Below the pieces are notes generated by a model that was not told where the DNA came from, searched no databases, and was given only the letters and a program-made list of their open reading frames with translations. A stretch of DNA of 60,484 bases, counting the filler, from Circinaria calcarea (lineage: Eukaryota): NCBI GenBank assembly GCA_051942165.1. It is 7 parts of 7 records of this genome, joined end to end, with 100 filler letters (N's around TTAATTAATTAA, not from the genome) between each part and the next. Parts side by side here need not be neighbours in the genome. Positions count along the whole stretch, not along the records: positions 17,331 to 25,891 come from JAVECS010001090.1; 6 more parts are not named here. One strand, written 5' to 3'. The position numbers and the translations under genes are program-made. Below, piece by piece: positions 8,570-51,955 of the stretch; within the stretch, counting starts at the first letter, position 1, and each line of letters opens with the position of its first letter.

Positions 8570-8669
8570 NNNNNNNNNNNNNNNNNNNNNNNNNNNNNNN
8601 NNNNNNNNNNNNNTTAATTAATTAANNNNNNNNNNNNNNNNNNNNNNNNNNNNNNNNNNNNNNNNNNNN
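8570..8669. other. Artificial contig spacer N44-TTAATTAATTAA-N44
   Basis: 100-nt spacer with stops in all six frames; identical copies at 17231, 25892, 34549, 43203 and 51856. Confidence 0.98.
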
Positions 8670-17230: not shown

Positions 17231-17330
17231 NNNNNNNNNNNNNNNNNNNNNNNNNNNNNNNNNNNNNNNNNNNNTTAATTAATTAANNNNNNNNNNNNNN
17301 NNNNNNNNNNNNNNNNNNNNNNNNNNNNNN
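17231..17330. other. Artificial contig spacer
   Basis: N44-TTAATTAATTAA-N44. Confidence 0.98.
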
Positions 17331-17332
17331 CG

Positions 17333-17695
17333 TCTAGGCTGGAAACTGCAATCGTCATCAACCATAGAATCTCCGATCCGCTGATGAAGAGGCAGTGCTC
17401 AGAAGACTTGGAGGAATGGCGTAGAGCAGACCACCTGTGGCGAATGAGTTGGGATGTTTCGAAAATCATGCAAGGTCATAAATTCTGGATGTCGTCTCCC
17501 CAGGGACGACTGAACACAATTCAGAGGCTATCATCCTCTCACCTGCTTCTGGAATGGGACACTGTGAAGCGGGATAAGATTCGGCGAATTGTTGGTCTTG
17601 ATTTTGGCGAACGCCCTGGCCACTGGGAATACACTGAAGATGGAGATCACCCGCCCGTACGACCAATTCCAGTGCACGTACAAGCTGGTTTTTGA
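17333..17695 (+). CDS. Possible 3' fragment of an unidentified gene
   Basis: Frame is open from the contig edge for 120 codons; no family recognised. Confidence 0.3.
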   Translation, partial: SRLETAIVINHRISDPLMKRQCSEDLEEWRRADHLWRMSWDVSKIMQGHKFWMSSPQGRLNTIQRLSSSHLLLEWDTVKRDKIRRIVGLDFGERPGHWEYTEDGDHPPVRPIPVHVQAGF

Positions 17696-18453
17696 TTCTA
17701 TCTACTCCAGCAGACTATCGCTACCTTGGGCTCACACTAATCATAACCGGGTAAAACTCCAAAACATACTACAAAAACGCAGCGCCGATTTAGCGCCGCC
17801 TCTGCTCCCTAAGGCGTAAGGTAGCAGGCGTGTCAAATCGGACGGTGAATCATGCATTAGCAGTTTGGTAGTATGTCGACGGCGGGGAAGGCGTCGGGGC
17901 AGCAGGCAGGGAGAAGGCATAAGATAGCAGATAAATACAACTTACTGCTTCCAAACACATATGTGATAGCAAGATCAAACTTGATGGGCTAGATTGCTAT
18001 AAGGGAGTGCAGACCTGTATCATGCATGCATGCAAATTCCCCTTATTTAATACAATCCCACAACATAATGTATGTAGCTCTATGCACCAGCAAATCAAAC
18101 CATGTTAACAAGGCATACCTACATCTGACGGATTTGGACGTGTGAGACTCAAAAAGTCGAACCACATATTATTGAGGGCATATGAACATCGCCTACTGCG
18201 GTGCCCCCCGGCATATTAGTTGCTTACTATTACGCGAGATCCCTATATATTAAATAGTTATGCAGATTACATAGGCACTTACGTGAATGCACATGACCAG
18301 TCTTACAATAGCCTCGCTTATTTATTGGCATTGCTGCCTTAATGGCACAGCTATGCTCTTGACCTCCTCAGAATGCTCAGTTCTAGGTGGCAAAGCCCTA
18401 AGTGATTATGAAGCCGCCTGTCAAAGAGCAAGAAGATTAAACCCCTTGCAGAA

Positions 18454-19971
18454 TTACTCCTTCTTACCTAGGATCTCCCGCATCCACCACGGCCGATATT
18501 CGTCATTCACCCACTGTGCCAATCGCTGCAAAGCTGCGAGAATTTGATACACACCAAGGTGACTCTGCGTGGATCCGATCGCTAACTCGCCATGGATCAA
18601 TATCAGATCCGTCTGTTTCTCGGCGATCAAGAGTTTCCAGTCATGCCCCTGAATTTTTACGAGAGGCAAGATGGGCATCGTTGCCTTGGCTTTTATCTCA
18701 GCCTTCGCCTTCTCGTTTGACGCGTAGCTACCTACTAAAGAGTCGAGCTTGGCAAAATGTGCAGAAACCCAAGTATTCAGCTGTAGTATAGCTTGGTCTT
18801 CTTCAATGGCCGCACGCTTGGTCTCCATACTAACCGCGATGGGCGTGAAGCGAACGTGGTTGGGATCTGTCTGGTTGACGCTGTCAAGTTGCTGTTCACG
18901 GCACAATCGCCTAATACTGGCCTCGAGGATAGAATTAACGGCTGGTTGGATAACAATTCCATAGTCAACCATTTTTGACTTGGGATTAAACCCAGGAATC
19001 TTAGGCAGCAGACGTTTTTCGCTAATTCTCGCTGAGGTCAGATCTTTGTACCACACTTCTATTGACCCTGAACTTTCCAAAGCAATTCTAAGCACTCTTG
19101 AGTGAACCTCACTATTCCAGGCTGATTCCGGGTAGTCCCCATCTTTGCATTCTCTAGCTGCACTTAGTACTCGAAGAATTCTTTGCCAGCGAGCGTGATG
19201 GATGTTTGAATCTTCTGTGTCATCGTTGCTGATATTGTAGTACATGTCTTCATCAAGGTCTTCCACCGTGTCCTTGATGATGCTGCGAATCGCGGATGGA
19301 AGTACGCGCCGATGCAGGTCAATTGATCTGATTGCCCGATATAAACCATTCGCGCTTGCTGGAAGCTCGCGACCAGGTGCGCCGAAGGTAGTGTTTATTA
19401 TGCAGACCTCAGCCAATTGCATGTCAAACCGAGCTTTACGTGGCGAACTTGAACGGTTTGAGGTCCTAGATTCCAAATCTCCCGTTGAGCTCTCTGATTG
19501 TGTAGACTCCCCCTTTTCTGAGCCGGCCCCATCAAGAATTGGTATTGCACCAAGATTTTTGGATGGCAAGGGTGCCTTTGGTGTAGGTTCCTCGTCTTCT
19601 TGGTCCGCACTGCGACCGCGACGGCTATGAACGGGGGTATAAAGCTTTGGATCGATACTATGTGGGCCTCGCAATCTGCTTCCAGCTTCTGCATGTGTTT
19701 TGCTTCTTGTTATGCGTTTGGTTGGTGATTCCCATCCTCCTGTCTTCTCCATGTCTTGCAGCCTAGGCGCCGCAGTGTTTGGCGACAGCTCGCCTAGCCT
19801 ACGACGGCTTAATTTATTAGCAGTCCGCTGAGGTTGTTGACGTTTCCTGCTGTGCACTGGGACCGAGTTCTCGTACTGAGCGGGGTGGTTGGGCTGATCA
19901 CTTAGCCACGAAATAATGCTGGATGGGGTGTCGGCGTCGGTATCGGAGTGCATACACCTCGAGGGGAGCAT
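18454..19971 (-). CDS. Fungal PD-(D/E)XK nuclease-like protein
   Basis: Intronless 505-aa ORF with a disordered N-terminus, then ESAWNSEVH, SKMVDYGI, SVNQT..RFTPIAVSMETKR (D...ExK), QLNTWVSAH, LPLVKIQGHDW, IGSTQS..GVYQI. Confidence 0.85.
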   Translation of the reverse strand: MLPSRCMHSDTDADTPSSIISWLSDQPNHPAQYENSVPVHSRKRQQPQRTANKLSRRRLGELSPNTAAPRLQDMEKTGGWESPTKRITRSKTHAEAGSRLRGPHSIDPKLYTPVHSRRGRSADQEDEEPTPKAPLPSKNLGAIPILDGAGSEKGESTQSESSTGDLESRTSNRSSSPRKARFDMQLAEVCIINTTFGAPGRELPASANGLYRAIRSIDLHRRVLPSAIRSIIKDTVEDLDEDMYYNISNDDTEDSNIHHARWQRILRVLSAARECKDGDYPESAWNSEVHSRVLRIALESSGSIEVWYKDLTSARISEKRLLPKIPGFNPKSKMVDYGIVIQPAVNSILEASIRRLCREQQLDSVNQTDPNHVRFTPIAVSMETKRAAIEEDQAILQLNTWVSAHFAKLDSLVGSYASNEKAKAEIKAKATMPILPLVKIQGHDWKLLIAEKQTDLILIHGELAIGSTQSHLGVYQILAALQRLAQWVNDEYRPWWMREILGKKE

Positions 19972-20189
19972 AGCGCTTTGAAAGCTAGGAGCTGCAGGTT
20001 ATCGATATCACAGCAGCTATCTCAGTAGAATAGAAGATGCATAGTAATCCATGATACATAGTTGACTTTAAAATGTAAACAAACTCCATGATTCGATTGC
20101 AGTTCGGGTGTGGATAAAGTGTGTTCCGGGCGGTTCAGAAATTTAAGCGACGGCATAACTTCGGCACTGATTAAGGGATAGCGCAATAA

Positions 20190-20861
20190 ATACGGAGATA
20201 TCCGTACATACCAATGGCTTCCTACCGACATTTCTGGGACCTATCCTCCAAGCCCGTCTCCAAGATACAGACGTGTCAGCACTGGGTTTTAAGTCTTCAA
20301 GCACTTAGTGGTCTATGGGCTCAGTGGTGTAACTCTTACAATCATTATAAGTATCATAACCAGTGCAGCTGTGTCAATAGTGACTATAACAGACAGTAAT
20401 GTAGTGAGCTCAGCTCGGTCAGCATCGGCAACAGAGGGTTCCACCATAACTAAATCAGAGATCTTGTCAATCTTATCATTATTACAGGAGCGACTGCTGA
20501 CCAGTCTAGAGGTCTCTCTAACCCCATACTAATTCTATCAACCTTGCCATTTACAACAGGAACAGTTGTTGATCAGCCTGGAGGTTTTTCTACCTCTGTC
20601 CAAATTGGTCTAAACGTTAGAGTATCGCTTGGTGGTCTAACACTCATAGCCCTAGTTTCAAACATCGCTTACCTGATTCTAATGCGGCGAAAACAAGGAA
20701 ATGACATGAAGAAGTTTGATGGTATGGTGGAGCCCACAAACAATTTCAATGGGACGGTGGAGCTCCAAGCTGCGTCAAGTTTGGGGGAATTTCAAAGTTC
20801 GCCACGTGTGGTGGAACTCCCAGCTACATTTTGTACGGTAGAGCTCCAAGCTCCACTTTAA
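20190..20861 (+). pseudogene. Degenerate Ser/Thr-rich single-pass membrane protein gene
   Basis: Broken frames: ILQARLQDTDVS, an S/T/I-rich stalk, STSVQIGLNVRVSLGGLTLIALVSNIAYLILMRRK (TM plus basic stop-transfer) and a VELQA/VELPA tail. In-frame stops and a frame change are present. Confidence 0.6.
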
Positions 20862-21658
20862 AACTAATGCACCTGGAGGACGTGCTTAAAAGTGAATCCA
20901 TCTCATTCTCCTCCCTATGGATTTGTCCTCACCTAAGTCGGCATCGTCAGATTACGCATCTATTCAGCAGTCAACTGAGTCACTCAAACTGGTGTCAATC
21001 ATACTAGTTCCAAGGACGATCGTAAAGGCCCGCACGGAAAAACTGACCATCGAAGGCAGAGATCTAGGCGGGGAGGCGTCCAACAATGGAGAAGAGGCGT
21101 CGCTGAGTTATTGCCGTTTGACTATCCAACAGAGAAGGTAAGGCGACGAAGCTTGGAGCTGGCAGAGCAGACGAGCAAGCTAAACATGATATTCGCAATG
21201 TACGCCTTTGTGGGCAATGTATCGAGCAACCTATCAACAATCCTTTGGCGCTTTAATCTTTTTAAGCGACATATTTAGGGACTGCCTTCCGTGTAGAAAA
21301 TGAAAGGATCTAGTATTGAAACCTCAAACAACGACCAAGCAGCAATCTTGTTCAAAACTAACCTGGCCAGCTGCAATCGATTCCAGACAGCAGGGTTTGA
21401 CTCCATTCCGCGACGCCCCACCTTGCTCAGGGAATGTTCAGGAAACGCTCAAGAATAGTTTGCCCCCCGACTCAGGGAAAGGCGGGCATCTACTCACTTT
21501 TAGGGCTAGAACGGAAAGAGAGCTGTGGACTGGGTGCATGGTCGTGTTACTGTTCAGAATGTTCTATGAGTATCTGTGTGCAGCCAGCGAGGGAATGTTT
21601 AAATTGAATACTAAAACATCTGATAACCCTGTTATACAGCTTGTCCTACTATTCCTCT

Positions 21659-22207
21659 CTACATTCCCTTCCTTACTCTCTCTCTCTCAACCTCTGATAA
21701 CCCAAAAAGCCAGCCGGGTGTCGTGACAATTTCATTTCTGTCCGTCAATTCAAGGCAAACACCTGTCGCCCCCTTATGATACACGTCGCTAGTACAGGTA
21801 CGCTGGTCTGCCTTGCACATGCTGCCGCACAGATTGCATTTCTTCAACTTTGGGTATTTCGGGGCTTTCGGGTCGACCTTGGAGCCGCCATTCGTTCCCC
21901 CGCCGGAAGGCTTGCTGTGGGATTGCCCGGGGCTTCGGGCATAGTGGAAGTGGTCATCCTGGGCCATGAGGACGTCGAGGAAATCATACTTGGGCTCCGC
22001 GTCGCGGGCGAAAAGGTCGTCGGCGTCGAATTCGGCAGCACGCGCGATGAGGGTGTCGTAATAGTTCACGTCGGCGGCGGCGTCACGGGCGCGCAGGGCG
22101 GCTTCGGCACGACGGGCGTAGACATGGTTGCCGGCAAAATCGGGTTGAGCAGCCACAAAGGTGGAGCAGGCGATGAAGAGGGCAACGAAGAGAGATTGGG
22201 AACGCAT
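21659..22207 (-). CDS. Small secreted pre-pro-protein with repeated xAR(D/A/R)A sites and a Cys-containing C-terminal domain
   Basis: Signal peptide MRSQSLFVALFIACSTFVAA; YARRAEA, LRARDAAA, LIARAAE, LFARDAEP, YARSP; CNLCGSMC-x6-C-x12-C. GC-rich codons; TATA-like element upstream at ~22365. Confidence 0.8.
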   Translation of the reverse strand: MRSQSLFVALFIACSTFVAAQPDFAGNHVYARRAEAALRARDAAADVNYYDTLIARAAEFDADDLFARDAEPKYDFLDVLMAQDDHFHYARSPGQSHSKPSGGGTNGGSKVDPKAPKYPKLKKCNLCGSMCKADQRTCTSDVYHKGATGVCLELTDRNEIVTTPGWLFGLSEVERERVRKGM

Positions 22208-24671
22208 GCTAAATAGGGTTGAAATTAGAGTTAAGGCTAGAAGACTACTAGAGAAAAGGATTCTAGAAATTCGTCTTTCAAAGACGTCGGTTAGAATCGA
22301 GGTTGATATTGGAGGGATTGCTGGAGAATCGGTTTGTAGCTATGAAAAGGGAAAGGGTATGTATTTTATATACATCTTCCTTGGAATGAATCCTAACAGA
22401 ATTGATAACAACAGAGTACCAACTTGAACATTATTGTGATCATGTTTGAGCACCTGCGGTTGGAGGCTTCGAAACGAGGCAATGTAGGTCAAGCTTATGA
22501 GGAATATAGCGTCAAAATGGGCGACCTGAAAAGCTGAAGGAATAAATTATTCAAGGCTTGGCCCTAAATGTTTCACCATCATCTTTGTTATGGAGAGTCA
22601 GATAGCGCTTGCGTGTCAGACCAGCTGCAAATTCGTCTCGGGCTTGTACCCGGCAAAATACAAAAGTATAATATCATCCACAACTCTCCAACGCCACGTC
22701 GCAAGCTGAAGAATGCTTTTGTTAGGAAGATAAGCAGAAGACGGCTACTTGGGGGTTATTAAAAAAAAGAAGCTGCCTTGAGCGAGTGTTTTCGACGACC
22801 TCCCGTTCCGTATATATTCAATCACGAGTGCCAGGAGCAGCTTTACATAGACGGTAAGAGATGATAAGTCCAACCTACGGGTTTATGACGGCTACTTGAA
22901 TGCTGGAAACAGGTTACCCCTATAGAGGAAGGAGCCATTACGTAAAAGGAGAAGGTATCTTCTCCGTCTTCGTGCCAACTTTTGAGGTCTGGTTACCAGT
23001 AGCGGAGTTTTCGGTGGGCCCATTCCTCGAGTTATAATCGAAAACTCCGGTTGCGGGAAACTACTCTCAAATCTTTCAGTCTTTCCGCGGTTATGATCTC
23101 CCCTGAAGTTTGAATAAGATTCAAGTCTGTAGGGCCTTGAATGATTGCTGTGGAACTTTGTGGAGTATATTTTCGTCGCGTAAGCCATTTTTATGTCCTC
23201 ATCATCGTCTTGTAATTCATGGTCCGATAAACTGGCTTTCCCACTGTCTTCCAGAGACCACCTTACGGCTTGGCAAGATTGGCATAATAGAATCCAAATA
23301 CCAACCAACCACGCTCTGGCCGGGTACAGAAAAGTCAAGACTTATGGAAAAATGCCAGCTGCGGTTGATCACTAACACCCGTGGCTTTATGCGCCTAGAC
23401 GGCTCTAACGTTGGGAGGGGGCAGCACTAACTTAGGGCTGCATCACAGTCTTGACTTTTTTTTGGTTTCCCATCAGCCATGATTGCCAGAAGCTGATTCG
23501 CTCGGCTGGTAGGTACTCAGAAGCGGAAAAAGAAAACGACCAAGAGCTCCTGTAGAGAGAGAATTATTCACAGAGATGTATTCACAGGAATAAATTGCTA
23601 CATGGAAATATCGGCGAATTTACTCCCATACCCCTTTCACTCACCGCAATACCAACCGCCATAGCAGAGCCTCTTACTCCCATACCTCCGTGCCCCGCAC
23701 TTTATTTCAACCGGGCGTCCATTTCTAACAGCCGAGCTTCACAGCCCAACCAATAGGCCTCAACCACATAAACAGGCCACAGTAGTTGCCGCCCCCAGGT
23801 GTGGCGACGGAAAATGCACGAGCGATATTAAAAGCTGTTACACATCACCCACGAGCAGCACCTAGTGCACAGTTAGTCAAGTCACCAATTAAAAAAAAAG
23901 AAAGGAAAAAAACTTAGCTATAATAAATTAAGCTATTTGAATCGATATTCTTTACGCAATGCAACTCATTGATTCCGCTGATTGCGTTACGCGTGTCAAA
24001 CTGTCTCATATATATAATTAGCATCGCCATGTTAGCATAGGGGGTTGTGGTAATAATATGCAACACAGCGGGGGGGATGGAGGAGGGGATGTTATGCGGG
24101 TGAACGGGGAAGTACGGGAGTAAGGAATGGCATGTCAAGGGGGTATGGAGTAATTCGCCATATAAGCTGTAGCGAGACACAGCCACAAAAGTAGATTGAT
24201 TTGGAGGAGTGTACCGTAAGTCTAAGTCGTAATATAGTCAATAAGTAATTCTGAATATTTATTTCACGACCGGTTAAATTACTTTAGAAAAGTCGGACGA
24301 TTTCCCCTCAAACAGATTGGTACTTCTACTGCCAATAGAATGAAAGTCGCTGAAAGGTCAAAGGCTCTGTATCAGCTGAAGTCGCCCGCCCAGCCTGGCG
24401 GCCCAGAAGTTCAGCAGTGAGCGACCAACTTACTGGCGACACCTTTTCTCTAACCCGCGCCGCAAGCTGAAGAAACCCCAGCTGACGTTCCTACCAACAT
24501 CCGGGGATGTGGAGAGAAAGCGGGTTAGTCAATTCAAGCTTCATTAGTCTCTCGCCTTCCATGTTATATCTCACTTGTTGCACCAAGCGGGCATTTCATC
24601 ATAAAAAGGACGTAAACCCACCATTCAAAAAAGCCAACACGTCAATCCACAAAACCCTCCCTGGTCTCACC

Positions 24672-25337
24672 ATGTCCTCACCCACCAATCCACTGCCGTC
24701 TTCCAAGGACCTCACCATCCTCGCCTTGGGCGAAACAGCCGAGGACAAAGCGCTCGTCCTGGACGGCCTCAAACTCGCCGGCTCGGTTCACATGCAGGAT
24801 ACAGCCACCGACGACTACCGCGAACTCCGATACACCGACAAAGACGGGCCCGCGTGGCGTATCCTTGATCCGGGCGACAGGGACCTCGTCCCCTCCGATA
24901 TGTCCGGCGTGACGGCCATCATGTTCGTCGTCAATCTAGCTCACTACGACCAACCCAGTGAATCCGCTTCGCTGTCTTCTCCGCCTATCGCCCAGCTGCA
25001 GAGTAGCCTCGAACGCTTCGCTACAGTCACCAACGCCTCGCCGTACGCTCGCACACCCGTTCTTCTCTTCTTCCGCGGTGCCGATACTATGGCCGCCCGG
25101 CTTCCCTCCTCGCCGCTGGAGAGGTTGTTTCCGGATTACGAGGCGGCAACGGACCCGGCGACGGGGAACTCGGCTGCCACGATGGGCGTGAGCTTCTTGG
25201 CCTCCAGGTTTGCGCGGGAGAGTCCAAGGCCAAAGGACCAGGTTTACGCGCATCCTGTAGCCGGGCCAAAGGGGGGAACGAGGGACTTGGAGTTCGTGAT
25301 GAAGGCGCTGGAGGATATTGTGGAAAAAAGAGAGTAA
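24672..25337 (+). CDS. Divergent G-protein alpha-like protein, Ras-like domain only
   Basis: CACCATGTC start context, intronless, 221 aa. GVTAIMFVVNLAHYDQ, LQSSLERFATVTN, TPVLLFF, SPLERLFPDY, VYAH and LEFVMKALEDIV are colinear with G-alpha beta4 to alpha5. Confidence 0.8.
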   Translation: MSSPTNPLPSSKDLTILALGETAEDKALVLDGLKLAGSVHMQDTATDDYRELRYTDKDGPAWRILDPGDRDLVPSDMSGVTAIMFVVNLAHYDQPSESASLSSPPIAQLQSSLERFATVTNASPYARTPVLLFFRGADTMAARLPSSPLERLFPDYEAATDPATGNSAATMGVSFLASRFARESPRPKDQVYAHPVAGPKGGTRDLEFVMKALEDIVEKRE

Positions 25338-25605
25338 AGCTTTTGAGGCCGATGAATTCTTGCTTCCACGATAAGTCGAACAAATTTACTTAATCACCGC
25401 GTAGCAGGTTTGAGCCCGGAGTAAAAGTAAGAGAGCCGTTTATGGCATTTAGAATAGATTTGGCATGAAAATGAATCTCTAGACTAAATTTCAACTAAAC
25501 ACCATCACTGTATCAAGTCTCCTTGATACTCCACAATTGTGCGCCGACACTTAAAGATCACCGCATCTAGCCCCGGATTCTTTGGTCTATTCTTTCATTA
25601 CTCCC

Positions 25606-25891
25606 TTACTCATATTCGCTAACGACACTTTCCACATCCGTCCAGCTCCCCGGCGTACTTATGCCTTCGGAGATGTTGCTCACAATGTCCAAATCGCTCT
25701 CACTCACAGGTTCATCTCCGTTTCTTGAGGCTGAATAAGTACTATCACTGCTATTAACATTAGGAGTGGTAAGGGCAGGACCTCTTCCCTCCGATTGCGG
25801 GGGCGAGTAGAATGGAGAGCTAGTGTTGTCGGCCCATTCATTCACGGACCAGTAGCTTGGTGGCTGGGGTGCTTCGTCTGCTAGGTCGGAG
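25606..25891 (-). CDS. C-terminal fragment of a gene truncated by the gap (acidic, Ser-rich tail)
   Basis: Frame is open from the contig edge and ends SEGISTPGSWTDVESVVSEYE*, resembling a conserved fungal TPxSW(T/S)(D/E)V tail. Family not assigned. Confidence 0.6.
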
Positions 25892-25991
25892 NNNNNNNNN
25901 NNNNNNNNNNNNNNNNNNNNNNNNNNNNNNNNNNNTTAATTAATTAANNNNNNNNNNNNNNNNNNNNNNNNNNNNNNNNNNNNNNNNNNNN
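25892..25991. other. Artificial contig spacer
   Basis: N44-TTAATTAATTAA-N44. Confidence 0.98.
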
Positions 25992-28900
25992 AGACAGCCT
26001 TCCCCCCTGTAACCTCCGCCTCCCACCACCCGTCGTCCTGCAGCCTCAGCACGGCCAGCACGTCCCCCTTGGCGAAACTCAGTTCTTGCGGGATGATGGC
26101 CTGGTACATGTACATTGCGCGTGCTGCAAGCCAAACACCGTCAGTCAGTAAGTCTCCCGGTCTAAAGAGCTTTCTGGTAAAAAAGGGGAGGAAAGGATGA
26201 GAGGGGGAAGGTTAGAAAGAAAAAGCCAAGACTTACCAAACTGCAGAATCGGCCGTCCGTCCCTGGTGTACTGCTGTCGCGCGTCCACGACGCTCTTGCT
26301 CCTCACCCGGTCTCCACCAGCACCCCCACCGCCGTTTCGCCCCTGTCCCTGATCGCCAGAGTAGTAACTCACCGGTCTACCCACACTCCCAGCTGCTGCG
26401 TTTCTACCACTATACATAGCTGCTTGTGCACCAGGGTCACCGTTGGAAAGTTGCAATGCCATGCCAGTTGCACCAGTACCGGCACTACTACCGGGTCTCT
26501 CTCTCCCTGGGCGTGCATACTGAGGTTGGGGTTGTGGTGAGGCGGCACGACGGATATCGTTTGGTGAGGTGTGGCGAGAGTACTGATTGACATTCCCGCT
26601 TGCAGAGCCATATCCTTGTTTCACAGGACTGTTGCCTACACTCTGACTCTGTCCTTGACCCGGGCCTTGGCGGATGGGTCGTCCTGCGTACGGGTTCGGA
26701 CTAGTTCCCCTCTGAACATGGCTATTCGGACGGCCAGCGTATGGGTTTGGACTGACACTCCTCTGAGCTTGAGAAGCCGGGCGTCCAGCATACGGGTTGG
26801 GACTAACGCTCCTCTGAGCTTGCGAAGCCGGCCGTACAGCATACGGATTGGGACTGACACTCCTTTGAGCTTGAGCAGTGGGGTGCCCAGTGTAAGGATT
26901 TGGGCTCGCACTTCTGTTATATCCATTTGGCGCTTGATTCCCGTTTGCCATACCAGGCCTTGGACTCGCACTCCTGTTGTAATTGTTCGATCCCTGGTTA
27001 GTGTTTCCTAATCCAGGTCTCGGACTTGTACTTCGCATTGGTAGAGGCGATGTAGCACGCGGTGGCACGTCTCCACCAGTACCACCACCCCTCGTGCCAG
27101 GTCTTGACGCTGAGCCATACATATCATTGTTTTGGCTGGTGTATTTCCTCGTTGTCTGTTGCATTTGCTTAGATGTGAACGCAGGCTGTGGTAGATCCAA
27201 TCTCTTGATTGGTTGCTGGTCATGATACGAGGGTGGAGGAGTACCACGCTGTGCGGCTATTGCATTACTATTGTTTTGTAGTGCCGCCGGGGTCCCTGGG
27301 GTTCCAGGGGGCGCAGGAGTGGCAATACCATGGTATCGATCTGCTGACATACGGACAGAAGACTGCTTACTGACGCCCTTTAGCTCTTCTAAAGCTTGAG
27401 CTATCGGGTCCAATTCGTAAGGGTGAGACTGGGTTGTAGAGGGTTGGGGTTTGCGATGAGAGTCTGGAGATGCTACATCAAACACGTTAGGACCGACATT
27501 GAGCTGGAAGTTTGCACGTGGGTCCACAGGTTCCGGGCTGTGGGAACCAGCACCCGCAAAATCTCCAGCCTGTATACCAGGGCGAGTGGGACTAGGATTG
27601 GTACTCGCAAAACCACGGCCACTAGACGGACCCCATGTATTCCGGGATGCAGGTGGTGCCATCGACAATGGTCTTTGTTCCTCGCGGCCATCCTTCTCAT
27701 GCTTACTTTTGCGGCGGAACGGACTATTGCTGAAGAAACCACTTCGCTTCTTTTGGACTTGCTTGTTTGGACTAATGGGAGGTGGCATGGATATCTGATC
27801 CTGTTTGGTTGGTGAGGCCTTTCCACTAGTAGGCTCTATGCTGGAAAACGAAGTGGGATTTGAGTAATCGCTTTGCGAGTCTCGGCTTGATGGCCTCACT
27901 GGACTATTGACAGAGCTTCGCTCCGACGGCGCGTCAGTACGACAAAACATGGTCATCCCATCAGCAGGATACTCATTGTGAGGGACTGGTGCAAAGTCAG
28001 GTTGGTTTTGCTGGAATTGCGCATGGGCTTGAGCTTGGGCTTGGGCTTGAGCTTGCCGCCGGTAGTCTAGCGGTGGAGGAGCCTGCTGTGGAGCTTTCTG
28101 AGGGACTATCGTTGGCTCGTCATCTGGAGATGCATTTAGATTTGCGTGTCCCATACGTGCTGCTAATTCCGATTGGGGATCATGGTGAGATTCATAGGTT
28201 GAAGGCTGAGGAGATGAGCTTCGGAACGCTGGATTAATGGTTCGTTGGAACTGAGCAACAGAGTAGTTGTCGTCCTCTGATGTCTCCGATGCTGTGTCAT
28301 TGACATCTCCGCGACAGAAATTGATATATTTTGGCGGATCTGGAATCTCTTGACCAGTGCCTCTCTCTTGGATGAACAGAGTGATGTCCTTTTCGACTTC
28401 ACAACTCTCCAAAGATAGTCGAATCTTTTCGCAGGACTGGAAAATATTAGCCAGATACCTTTCACATCTTCAAGGAACCTTACAGCATCATCACTAACAC
28501 AAACGGTTGATGCGATGTTTGCAAACGTCCATAAGCTGCTTTTCGTAAAGTCGAGTCTCTCTTCCTCCAGATCTTGAAATTTCTACCCGGATATTAGTCA
28601 ACATTTTCTTTTAGTAATCGTCCTTGGGAAATATACGTCGCAAGCCGCCTTCCAATCCCTATTCCACCGTCCTGTTGTCTCCTCCAACAGTTTCACTGCA
28701 GCCTCATACTCATTACTCGTCTGAGCCAATTGGACTTGCGTCTTCTCCAATTTAGCCTTGTTCTTCCGTTCTTCTTGGCCCATGACCATATGACCCTGCG
28801 CCAGGTAACCCTTTATCCGCAGACAATCCTGCTCGTATCGGTCTCGGGACTGATGTTTCCTTAGCCACCATTGCATATTCGCGTGTCCTTACTAGCCACC

Positions 28901-34548: not shown

Positions 34549-34648
34549 NNNNNNNNNNNNNNNNNNNNNNNNNNNNNNNNNNNNNNNNNNNNTTAATTAA
34601 TTAANNNNNNNNNNNNNNNNNNNNNNNNNNNNNNNNNNNNNNNNNNNN
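34549..34648. other. Artificial contig spacer
   Basis: N44-TTAATTAATTAA-N44. Confidence 0.98.
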
Positions 34649-43202: not shown

Positions 43203-43302
43203 NNNNNNNNNNNNNNNNNNNNNNNNNNNNNNNNNNNNNNNNNNNNTTAATTAATTAANNNNNNNNNNNNNNNNNNNNNNNNNNNNNNNNNNNNNNNNNN
43301 NN
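43203..43302. other. Artificial contig spacer
   Basis: N44-TTAATTAATTAA-N44. Confidence 0.98.
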
Positions 43303-51855: not shown

Positions 51856-51955
51856 NNNNNNNNNNNNNNNNNNNNNNNNNNNNNNNNNNNNNNNNNNNNT
51901 TAATTAATTAANNNNNNNNNNNNNNNNNNNNNNNNNNNNNNNNNNNNNNNNNNNN
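51856..51955. other. Artificial contig spacer
   Basis: N44-TTAATTAATTAA-N44. Confidence 0.98.

Follow-up and report, generated by a model that had tools for sequence, protein, structure and literature searches.

Can a G-protein alpha subunit (G-alpha) exist in nature without its helical domain, the part that gates nucleotide exchange and that, to our knowledge, separates G-alpha from every other Ras-superfamily GTPase? The question is raised by an uninterrupted open reading frame (ORF) of 221 codons plus a stop codon, encoding a protein that we call P0001, in a 60,484-nucleotide stretch of DNA from Circinaria calcarea (assembly GCA_051942165.1) that was analysed at its full length and is referred to here as the window. 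Profile, structural and phylogenetic comparisons led us to conclude that P0001 is very probably a real and conserved G-alpha derivative without a helical domain. What would be new here, judging from the sequences, is a conserved G-alpha-derived family that lacks the domain by which G-alpha is defined and that appears to have been caught at several stages toward a pseudo-GTPase.

Homology of P0001 to the Ras-like domain of G-alpha

An earlier note on this DNA, made from the sequence alone, had read the ORF as colinear with G-alpha, as a natural Ras-like domain without the helical domain, and as resembling engineered mini-G proteins, and these readings were borne out by database comparisons. The Pfam G-alpha profile (PF00503) matched P0001 with 59.3 bits, above its gathering score of 48.8 (E 4.6e-16), and G-alpha was the sole Pfam family found at E<=10, the Arf profile (PF00025) giving no match at that threshold. 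Three P-loop-intact relatives described below (P0010, P0185 and P0186) did give Arf matches, but these were sub-threshold, scoring 14-17 bits where the cut-off is 22.3. The Pfam match of P0001 is limited to residues 77-216, corresponding to profile positions 204-332 of 333. In a phmmer comparison with the sequences in the PDB, residues 8-217 of P0001 aligned to engineered Go constructs of 224-250 residues (E 2.9e-9 to 3.5e-9 for those of 236-250 residues), and alignments to full-length natural G-alpha chains began only at P0001 residue 77 or 78. Engineered mini-Go proteins are therefore the closest look-alikes, being the sole solved-structure chains that P0001 matched over its full length. In these alignments the P0001 residues AGSVHMQD sit exactly on GGSGGSGG, the linker that replaces the helical domain in mini-Go. 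The helical-domain region (~120 canonical residues, ~200 alignment columns) is likewise empty in all 19 family rows of an alignment of P0001 and its relatives with canonical G-alphas, apart from a few stray residues in six of them.

Both ends of P0001 are also shortened, as the earlier note had stated for the lipidation site and the C-terminal tail. The N-terminus, MSSPTNPLPSSKD, opens with Met-Ser-Ser and runs directly into beta1, with no alphaN helix, no Gly2, no Cys and hence no myristoylation or palmitoylation site of the MG or MGC kind. At the other end P0001 stops at ...DIVEKRE, and canonical rows extend ~8-10 residues further. From beta3 to alpha5 the sequence is G-alpha-like and includes VTAIxFVxxLxxYDQ, PLxxxFPDY and the alpha5 core. 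Comparison of profiles by hhalign gave a probability of 99.3% (E 8e-21) for P0001 and its three close orthologues against 15 canonical G-alphas, and 98.2% (E 5e-14) for a profile of relatives from the Magnaporthales against the same 15. The best hits of P0001 in a protein atlas search were all G-alpha clusters; with a score of 0.84, under the 0.9 level, they were treated as leads only.

The predicted fold agrees with this assignment. AlphaFold2, run on 39 aligned rows (19 family, 20 canonical), gave a model with a predicted local distance difference test score (pLDDT) of 85.7 and a predicted template modelling score of 0.84, in which the strands and helices follow the order of the Ras-like domain and end in a long C-terminal helix spanning residues 202-220. 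The best 50 rows of a Foldseek search of the PDB were all chains of 209-235 residues from complexes of G-protein-coupled receptors (GPCRs) with G proteins (E 3.6e-14 to 9.4e-13, template modelling scores 0.63-0.74). An independent search with VIA-align against 48,161 representative chains placed G-alpha chains or G-alpha-containing entries at ranks 1-9 (Z 15.7-20.2, 172-196 residues aligned); the first non-G-alpha chain had a Z of 14.2 and Arf/Arl chains had a Z of <=13.9. Both searches were made with a model built with canonical G-alpha in its alignment, and in both the best matches were G-alpha, and neither Arf-like nor non-GTPase.

A family in two classes of Ascomycota

Relatives with the same deletion were recovered at several distances. 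A word-indexed search, in which four proteins including the query reached E<=1e-3 among 675 candidates, identified three close orthologues at 69-81% identity (about 80, 69 and 69%), one of which is annotated from Xylographa bjoerkii. Like P0001, all three are without the N-terminal helix and the helical domain and have a short C-terminus, and the indels among the four proteins are all frame-preserving. A profile search of 1.84 billion representatives yielded 764 proteins at E<=1e-3, and at least 11 short-type cluster representatives were present among the best 150 of those 764, which were the ones examined. Nine of these are colinear end to end (P0004, P0005, P0007-P0010, P0013, P0044 and P0122), P0006 is an 85-residue fragment, and P0018 was matched from residue 79 onward only. 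Two additional word-indexed searches, with 8000 candidates scored in each, contributed P0164-P0169 and P0185-P0188. Together, 23 distinct proteins of 206-253 residues (one called at 275) were found to have the same architecture, without alphaN, helical domain and C-terminal tail. Other short matches of the profile (190-320 residues) covering only residues 77-210 were rejected as family members since most are fragments or truncated models of canonical G-alphas that start inside the helical domain or at FDVGGQ.

The family has sources in the Lecanoromycetes (Xylographa bjoerkii, Trapelia coarctata and Lambiella insularis) and in the Magnaporthales (Pyricularia oryzae, as MGG_09447, P. grisea, P. 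pennisetigena, Pyricularia sp., Gaeumannomyces hyphopodioides, G. tritici and Magnaporthiopsis poae), with lineage assignments verified for four species. The Magnaporthales members carry the label 'hypothetical protein' and score 16 and 12.4 bits with the Pfam G-alpha profile, below its threshold, so their recognition adds an unnoticed component to the well-studied signalling of plant pathogens. A helical-less lineage across two ascomycete classes indicates that the Ras-like domain of G-alpha alone is evolutionarily viable, and its members provide natural sequences for studying how a bare Ras-like domain is stabilised.

An unrooted IQ-TREE phylogeny was calculated from the 211 columns filled by P0001, leaving out those of the helical domain, for 44 rows comprising the 23 family members, 20 canonical-length G-alphas taken from the profile matches, and P0062, a protein described below. 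A branch with support of 99/99 separates all 23 family rows from the rest, a split that recurred in 98% of the 200 bootstrap trees and was also borne out by a quicker tree of 39 rows. Within the family, a clade of 14 rows (support 96/92) unites P0001 and its close orthologues with P0005, P0013 and all Magnaporthales rows, and the other nine rows (Trapelia, Lambiella, P0007, P0009, P0010 and P0185-P0188) sit between that clade and the canonical G-alphas. The state of the nucleotide motifs tracks the tree, with P-loop-retaining rows outside the 14-row clade and degenerate ones within it. Since Lambiella has a protein of the Trapelia type, Xylographa has one of the type found in the window, and both genera belong to the Xylographaceae, the Trapelia type and the type found in the window are probably old paralogues and not orthologues. 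The family offers material for studying the transition from GTPase to pseudo-GTPase, with members that grade from those whose P-loop is intact to those whose motifs are all degenerate.

This spread of relatives bears on the possibility that an assembly or gene-calling artefact removed the helical domain. The gene does lie on a short contig, of 8.5 kb, in a fragmented assembly, but the ORF is continuous across the junction and the same junction is present in independent NCBI, ENA, Logan and JGI assemblies. Mis-assembly, which the earlier note had named as a way for its reading to fail, was excluded by the occurrence of one architecture in 23 distinct proteins from many assemblies, and a shared error is not credible because the relatives diverge to 22-81% identity. 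We therefore regard an artefact as extremely improbable.

The evidence that the gene is maintained comes from comparison with neutral expectation and from site-specific conservation. When neutral substitution was simulated, the ORF of P0001 remained free of a premature stop in 214, 89, 12 and 2 of 1000 runs at 80, 70, 43 and 30% amino acid identity, respectively, whereas family members with the same start and end exist at all of these distances. The same start, end and deletions are in fact kept in the 23 proteins down to 22-24% identity. Column entropies of the family and of canonical G-alpha are correlated (Spearman 0.39, p 3e-8, 189 columns), which indicates that the same core positions are constrained in both. 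The guanine-plus-cytosine (GC) content at third codon positions (GC3) of the ORF is coding-like at 0.73, with a GC content of 0.47 in both flanks. Orthologue DNA was also sought in metagenome contigs, where none of 535 pattern matches was confirmed. It is conceivable that P0001 is a non-functional relic, either a retrocopy or an internally deleted G-alpha duplicate drifting to loss, as its gene has no introns, degenerate nucleotide motifs, a patchy distribution and a fast rate of evolution (69-81% identity among the closest relatives), and as a search for RNA sequencing runs over 24300-25700 of the window listed none. However, the rarity with which the ORF survived simulation, the conservation in parallel with canonical G-alpha, the retained boundaries and frame-keeping indels, and the GC3 all make such a relic very improbable.

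Several other G-alpha-like proteins with unusual architectures were observed in the course of the searches. P0012, at rank 9 of the profile search, has 2766 residues made up of ~12 tandem G-alpha-like units of ~200 residues, each with a P-loop and without a helical domain; its Pfam G-alpha score of 600.8 bits is distributed over 12 stretches, each on the C-terminal part of the profile. On this sequence evidence it appears to be a further natural occurrence of helical-less G-alpha modules, seemingly unrelated to the first. The 249-residue P0062 from the basidiomycete Flagelloscypha sp. PMI_526 (KAH8827899.1) is also without a helical domain; its switch II is of full length, its P-loop is degenerate, and in the 44-row tree it groups with the divergent basidiomycete G-alpha P0033, outside the ascomycete family; it represents either an independent loss of the helical domain or a gene-model error. 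P0033, P0034, P0047, P0143 and P0060 (342-369 residues; from Pterulicium, Coprinopsis for two of them, Serpula and Cosmosporella) are of canonical length with the helical domain present, have a degenerate P-loop and switch II (e.g., GTEDSGKDE and DMGTQ), and branch nearest to the helical-less family. Paralogues of this kind may represent the sort of ancestor from which that family arose. Lastly, P0133 (211 residues, G-alpha-i-like) has an intact MGC N-terminus and a P-loop joined straight to FDVGGQ, with the helical domain and switch I left out. This probably reflects a gene model in which an exon was skipped or parts were mis-joined, and the protein lies outside the fungal family.

Degenerate nucleotide motifs and candidate functions

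The degenerate motifs that had been read from the sequence (GETAEDKA, DPGDR, RGAD and PVA, with a shortened switch II) were all confirmed by alignment, and in P0001 each of the five nucleotide motifs is degenerate. In the P-loop of P0001 an Asp replaces the Gly directly before Lys26 and an Ala replaces the Mg-binding Ser/Thr; Asp occupies this Gly position in 14 of 19 family rows, compared with Gly in 19 of 20 canonical rows. The G3 motif (residues 66-70) is followed by a switch II that is four residues shorter than that of mini-Go, neither a catalytic Gln (switch II) nor a catalytic Arg (switch I) can be aligned, and the Thr of switch I is not recognisable. At G4 the four close orthologues have RGAD, RGAG, HGAN and RGAD, so that the guanine-specificity Asp is no longer under constraint in the clade of the window gene. 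The Magnaporthales rows have lost the P-loop Lys as well (GHTDADT). By comparison, the eight rows of the Trapelia type retain GxxxSGK[S/A] in six, the P-loop Lys in seven, the G4 N..D in all eight and the G3 DxG in six, but are without the catalytic Gln, and the Mg-binding Thr of their switch I is not alignable. At the sequence level, then, P0001 corresponds to a pseudoGTPase, in that the G-domain fold is kept and residues that bind nucleotide and Mg are lost.

The interpretation that we favour, with moderate confidence for the statement as a whole, is that P0001 is the product of a gene kept by selection and is a soluble, nucleotide-independent binding module, a pseudo-GTPase derived from G-alpha. 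The ancestor of the family would have been a fungal G-alpha from which alphaN, the entire helical domain and the C-terminal tail were lost, with the core of the Ras-like fold being retained and constrained at the positions that are constrained in canonical G-alpha. The Trapelia and Lambiella type would be the less derived, still having the P-loop GxxxSGK[S/A] and NxxD, and in the clade of the window gene and the Magnaporthales the P-loop Gly would have been exchanged for a conserved Asp as G4 and G5 drifted. P0001 would no longer bind guanine nucleotide in the canonical way, and is expected to be soluble because it has no lipidation site. Potentially, it serves as a scaffold or adaptor of the class-I pseudoGTPase kind, acting by routes other than the canonical surfaces; those that contact G-beta-gamma, RGS, GoLoco or receptor are either gone or degenerate.

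In canonical G-alpha, G-beta-gamma binding requires alphaN and switch II, RGS binding requires all three switches, GoLoco binding requires switch II/alpha3 and the helical domain, and binding of the receptor and of Ric8 requires the end of alpha5. These requirements bear directly on a decoy role, an idea raised in the earlier note, in which G-beta-gamma, RGS, Ric8, a GPCR or adenylate cyclase would be tied up by P0001 with no cycling of nucleotide. The alpha3 helix and the PLxxxFPDY / alphaG-alpha4 region do remain G-alpha-like, and a plant precedent exists in the nucleotide-poor 'decoy' G-alpha XLG2, discussed below. However, P0001 has no alphaN, only a short loop remains of its switch II with the canonical residues gone, its switch I is degenerate, and its alpha5 stops ~8-10 residues early. 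Because the partner surfaces are thus deleted or degenerate, we consider a decoy unlikely and a re-purposed scaffold the likelier role.

A third possibility is that P0001 is a residual, unusual nucleotide switch, with weak or non-canonical binding and fast, receptor-independent exchange in the absence of the helical lid. It would draw on the presence in P0001 of Lys26, Asp66-x-Gly68 and Asp138 and on the P-loop and G4 N..D retained in the sister rows of the Trapelia type. Set against it are the Asp before the P-loop Lys that most family rows share, the Ala in place of the Mg-binding residue, the lack of constraint on the G4 Asp among the close orthologues and the absence of the Lys from Magnaporthales members of the same 14-row clade. 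Such a switch is more likely to fit the Trapelia-type paralogues than P0001, for which it seems decidedly unlikely.

Several points weigh against P0001 being a maintained, nucleotide-independent module. The argument from retention of the ORF is biased upward, since databases hold only called ORFs and broken copies are invisible in them. Predicted helices and strands show no significant excess of columns that are invariant among the four close orthologues (76/128 versus 44/93, Fisher p 0.10). An AlphaFold2 model made from those four proteins only was poor (pLDDT 58.5), so that the good model relies on an alignment that includes canonical G-alpha. The Lys of the P-loop and the DxG of G3 (D66/G68) are kept, and on this basis P0001 may bind some phosphate or nucleotide. 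Finally, the scaffold role of P0001 was arrived at by elimination.

Comparison with known systems helps to place a G-alpha-derived pseudo-GTPase of this kind. Relative to canonical G-alpha (PF00503; in fungi GPA-1 to GPA-4 / MagA, MagB and MagC), P0001 is homologous from beta3 to alpha5 and its best structural match is to the Ras-like fold, but it is without alphaN, helical domain, lipidation site, catalytic Gln and C-terminal tail, and has a short switch II and degenerate G1, G4 and G5. Plant XLG proteins keep the helical domain as well as interactions with G-beta-gamma and RGS and have a long N-terminal extension, whereas the fungal family consists of a bare Ras-like domain. XLG2 is described, in extracts of the source (bioRxiv 10.1101/795088), as a G-alpha homologue with reduced nucleotide binding and is termed a decoy; it and P0001, the latter by its sequence, are alike as natural G-alpha homologues without residues for nucleotide binding or hydrolysis that are proposed to act independently of nucleotide.

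Among proteins of other descent, the pseudoGTPases offer a second parallel, and CENP-M is one of them. Another is the N-terminal domain of AAGAB (excerpted in PMC12490416), a type in which, as in P0001, the G-domain fold is kept and the nucleotide motifs are lost, the domain being used there as a protein-protein interaction module. Pseudo-GTPases of the AAGAB type descend from GTPase families other than G-alpha, and a helical-less pseudoGTPase derived from G-alpha was not found in the literature searched.

The likeness to mini-G is one of construction. Mini-G and P0001 share a trimmed N-terminus and, between the same alpha1 / switch-I boundaries, a stretch of ~8 residues where the helical domain would otherwise be. 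According to the consulted portions of Carpenter and Tate (2016, PMC5181381), a bare GTPase domain of G-alpha-s with a glycine linker 'expressed poorly' and was 'very unstable'; mini-G needed G49D, E50N, A249D, S252D, deletion of switch III and other changes, and a partial N-terminal deletion was tolerated. At the position equivalent to A249, the family has Asp in 13 and Asn in five of 19 rows, and canonical rows have Ala in 12, Ser in four and Asp in four of 20. Those last four are divergent fungal paralogues of canonical length (two from Coprinopsis, one each from Serpula and Cosmosporella), and for this reason Asp at the site may predate the deletion. At the position equivalent to E50, Asn or Asp is present in six of the eight P-loop-intact proteins of the Trapelia type. 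Mini-G, built for binding active receptors, has an intact nucleotide pocket and switch II and an alpha5 tail of full length. Because P0001 has none of these, it is like mini-G in build but probably not in its working.

These resemblances allow a broader scenario that, taken in its entirety, is tentative and somewhat doubtful. One ancestral deletion of alphaN, helical domain and tail would have produced a natural mini-G, stabilised by changes resembling those of the engineers, with Asp/Asn where mini-G has A249D and Asn where it has E50N. The lineage would then have split into a lidless form with an intact P-loop, maybe with very fast, receptor-independent guanine nucleotide exchange, and a nucleotide-free pseudo-GTPase in which the P-loop Asp fills the phosphate site; that the conserved Asp occupies this site is itself speculation. 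If the scenario were true, the family would add to fungal G-protein signalling a branch that had so far gone unrecognised and that persists in lichen-forming fungi and in the order of the rice-blast fungus.

The earlier note knew of no described fungal class of this kind, and this stood in one respect and had to be qualified in two. In the literature searched we found no description of a natural helical-less G-alpha, a scope that did not extend to the survey likeliest to note one (Anantharaman et al. 2011, Gene 475:63); a review of fungal G proteins (PMC13267034) and de Mendoza 2014 (PMC3971589) mention none, and 'MGG_09447' did not occur in the papers searched. The proteins themselves, however, are already in public databases under automatic names. 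In addition, divergent G-alpha paralogs of lichen fungi had been flagged by Armaleo et al. 2019 (PMC6652019), who, in the parts consulted, described five such paralogs of Cladonia grayi and Endocarpon pusillum as 'divergent MAG C-like' and proposed them as symbiosis-related signalling components. Their paralogs and P0001 are alike in being extra, divergent G-alphas of lichen fungi, and the helical-less members from lichens may correspond to them. The term 'helical domain' has no occurrence in the main text and 12 of the 13 supplement files of that study, and no domain architecture is given in those parts.

The locus and its surroundings

The features of the locus are collected in Table 1. The earlier note had also described a gene with an uninterrupted ORF of 221 residues, high GC3, the start context CACCATG and a CATAAAA element ~70 nucleotides upstream, and all of these are present, the element lying 72 nucleotides upstream of the ATG. 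An alternative in-frame ATG at 24507 would add 55 codons. We took 24672 as the start and regard 24507 as unlikely because the GC3 of the extension is 0.53, compared with 0.73 for the ORF, and because three of the four close orthologues begin with Met-Ser-Ser, which is internal to the longer call of the fourth.

Table 1. Coordinates in the window of the P0001 gene, its motifs and the joined contigs (res, residues; CDS, coding sequence).
Feature	Position	Strand	Basis
Single-exon CDS of helical-domain-less G-alpha homologue P0001	24672..25337	+	ORF, Pfam G-alpha 59.3 bits, mini-Go colinearity, fold
Putative core promoter and start context: CATAAAA at 24600, CACCATG at 24668	24600..24674	+	Positions only
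Degenerate P-loop (G1) GETAEDKA, res 20-27	24729..24752	+	Motif alignment
Eight-residue junction AGSVHMQD, res 36-43, in place of ~120-residue helical domain	24777..24800	+	Mini-Go linker alignment, family alignment
G3 / switch II remnant DPGDRDLVPSDMS, res 66-78	24867..24905	+	Without catalytic Gln, loop shortened
G4 remnant RGAD, res 135-138, in place of NKxD	25074..25085	+	Motif alignment
G5 remnant PVA, res 195-197, in place of TCA	25254..25262	+	Motif alignment
alpha5 helix, res 202-221, ending ...DIVEKRE, without receptor-coupling tail	25275..25334	+	Model helix 202-220, pLDDT ~92; family alignment
Contig carrying the P0001 gene, 8561 bases	17331..25891	.	Linker positions; longest contig recorded for P0001 is 8561
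Linkers N44-TTAATTAATTAA-N44	8570-8669, 17231-17330, 25892-25991, 34549-34648, 43203-43302, 51856-51955		

The window consists of seven pieces of ~8.55-8.57 kb joined by six linkers, and since it is a concatenation of contigs, genes on opposite sides of a linker are not neighbours. A second G-alpha-like locus was not found across the whole window. The sole Pfam-recognisable neighbour on the contig of P0001 is an ORF of 514 residues with a PDDEXK_12 domain (18457-19998, minus strand, E 2.1e-65), which gives no hint to the function of P0001. The next contig has, at 25992-28469 on the minus strand, a long Pro/Ser/Gln-rich ORF of 669 residues from its ATG and, after it and not linked to the G-alpha gene, a short exon-like ORF that appears SH3-like by eye.

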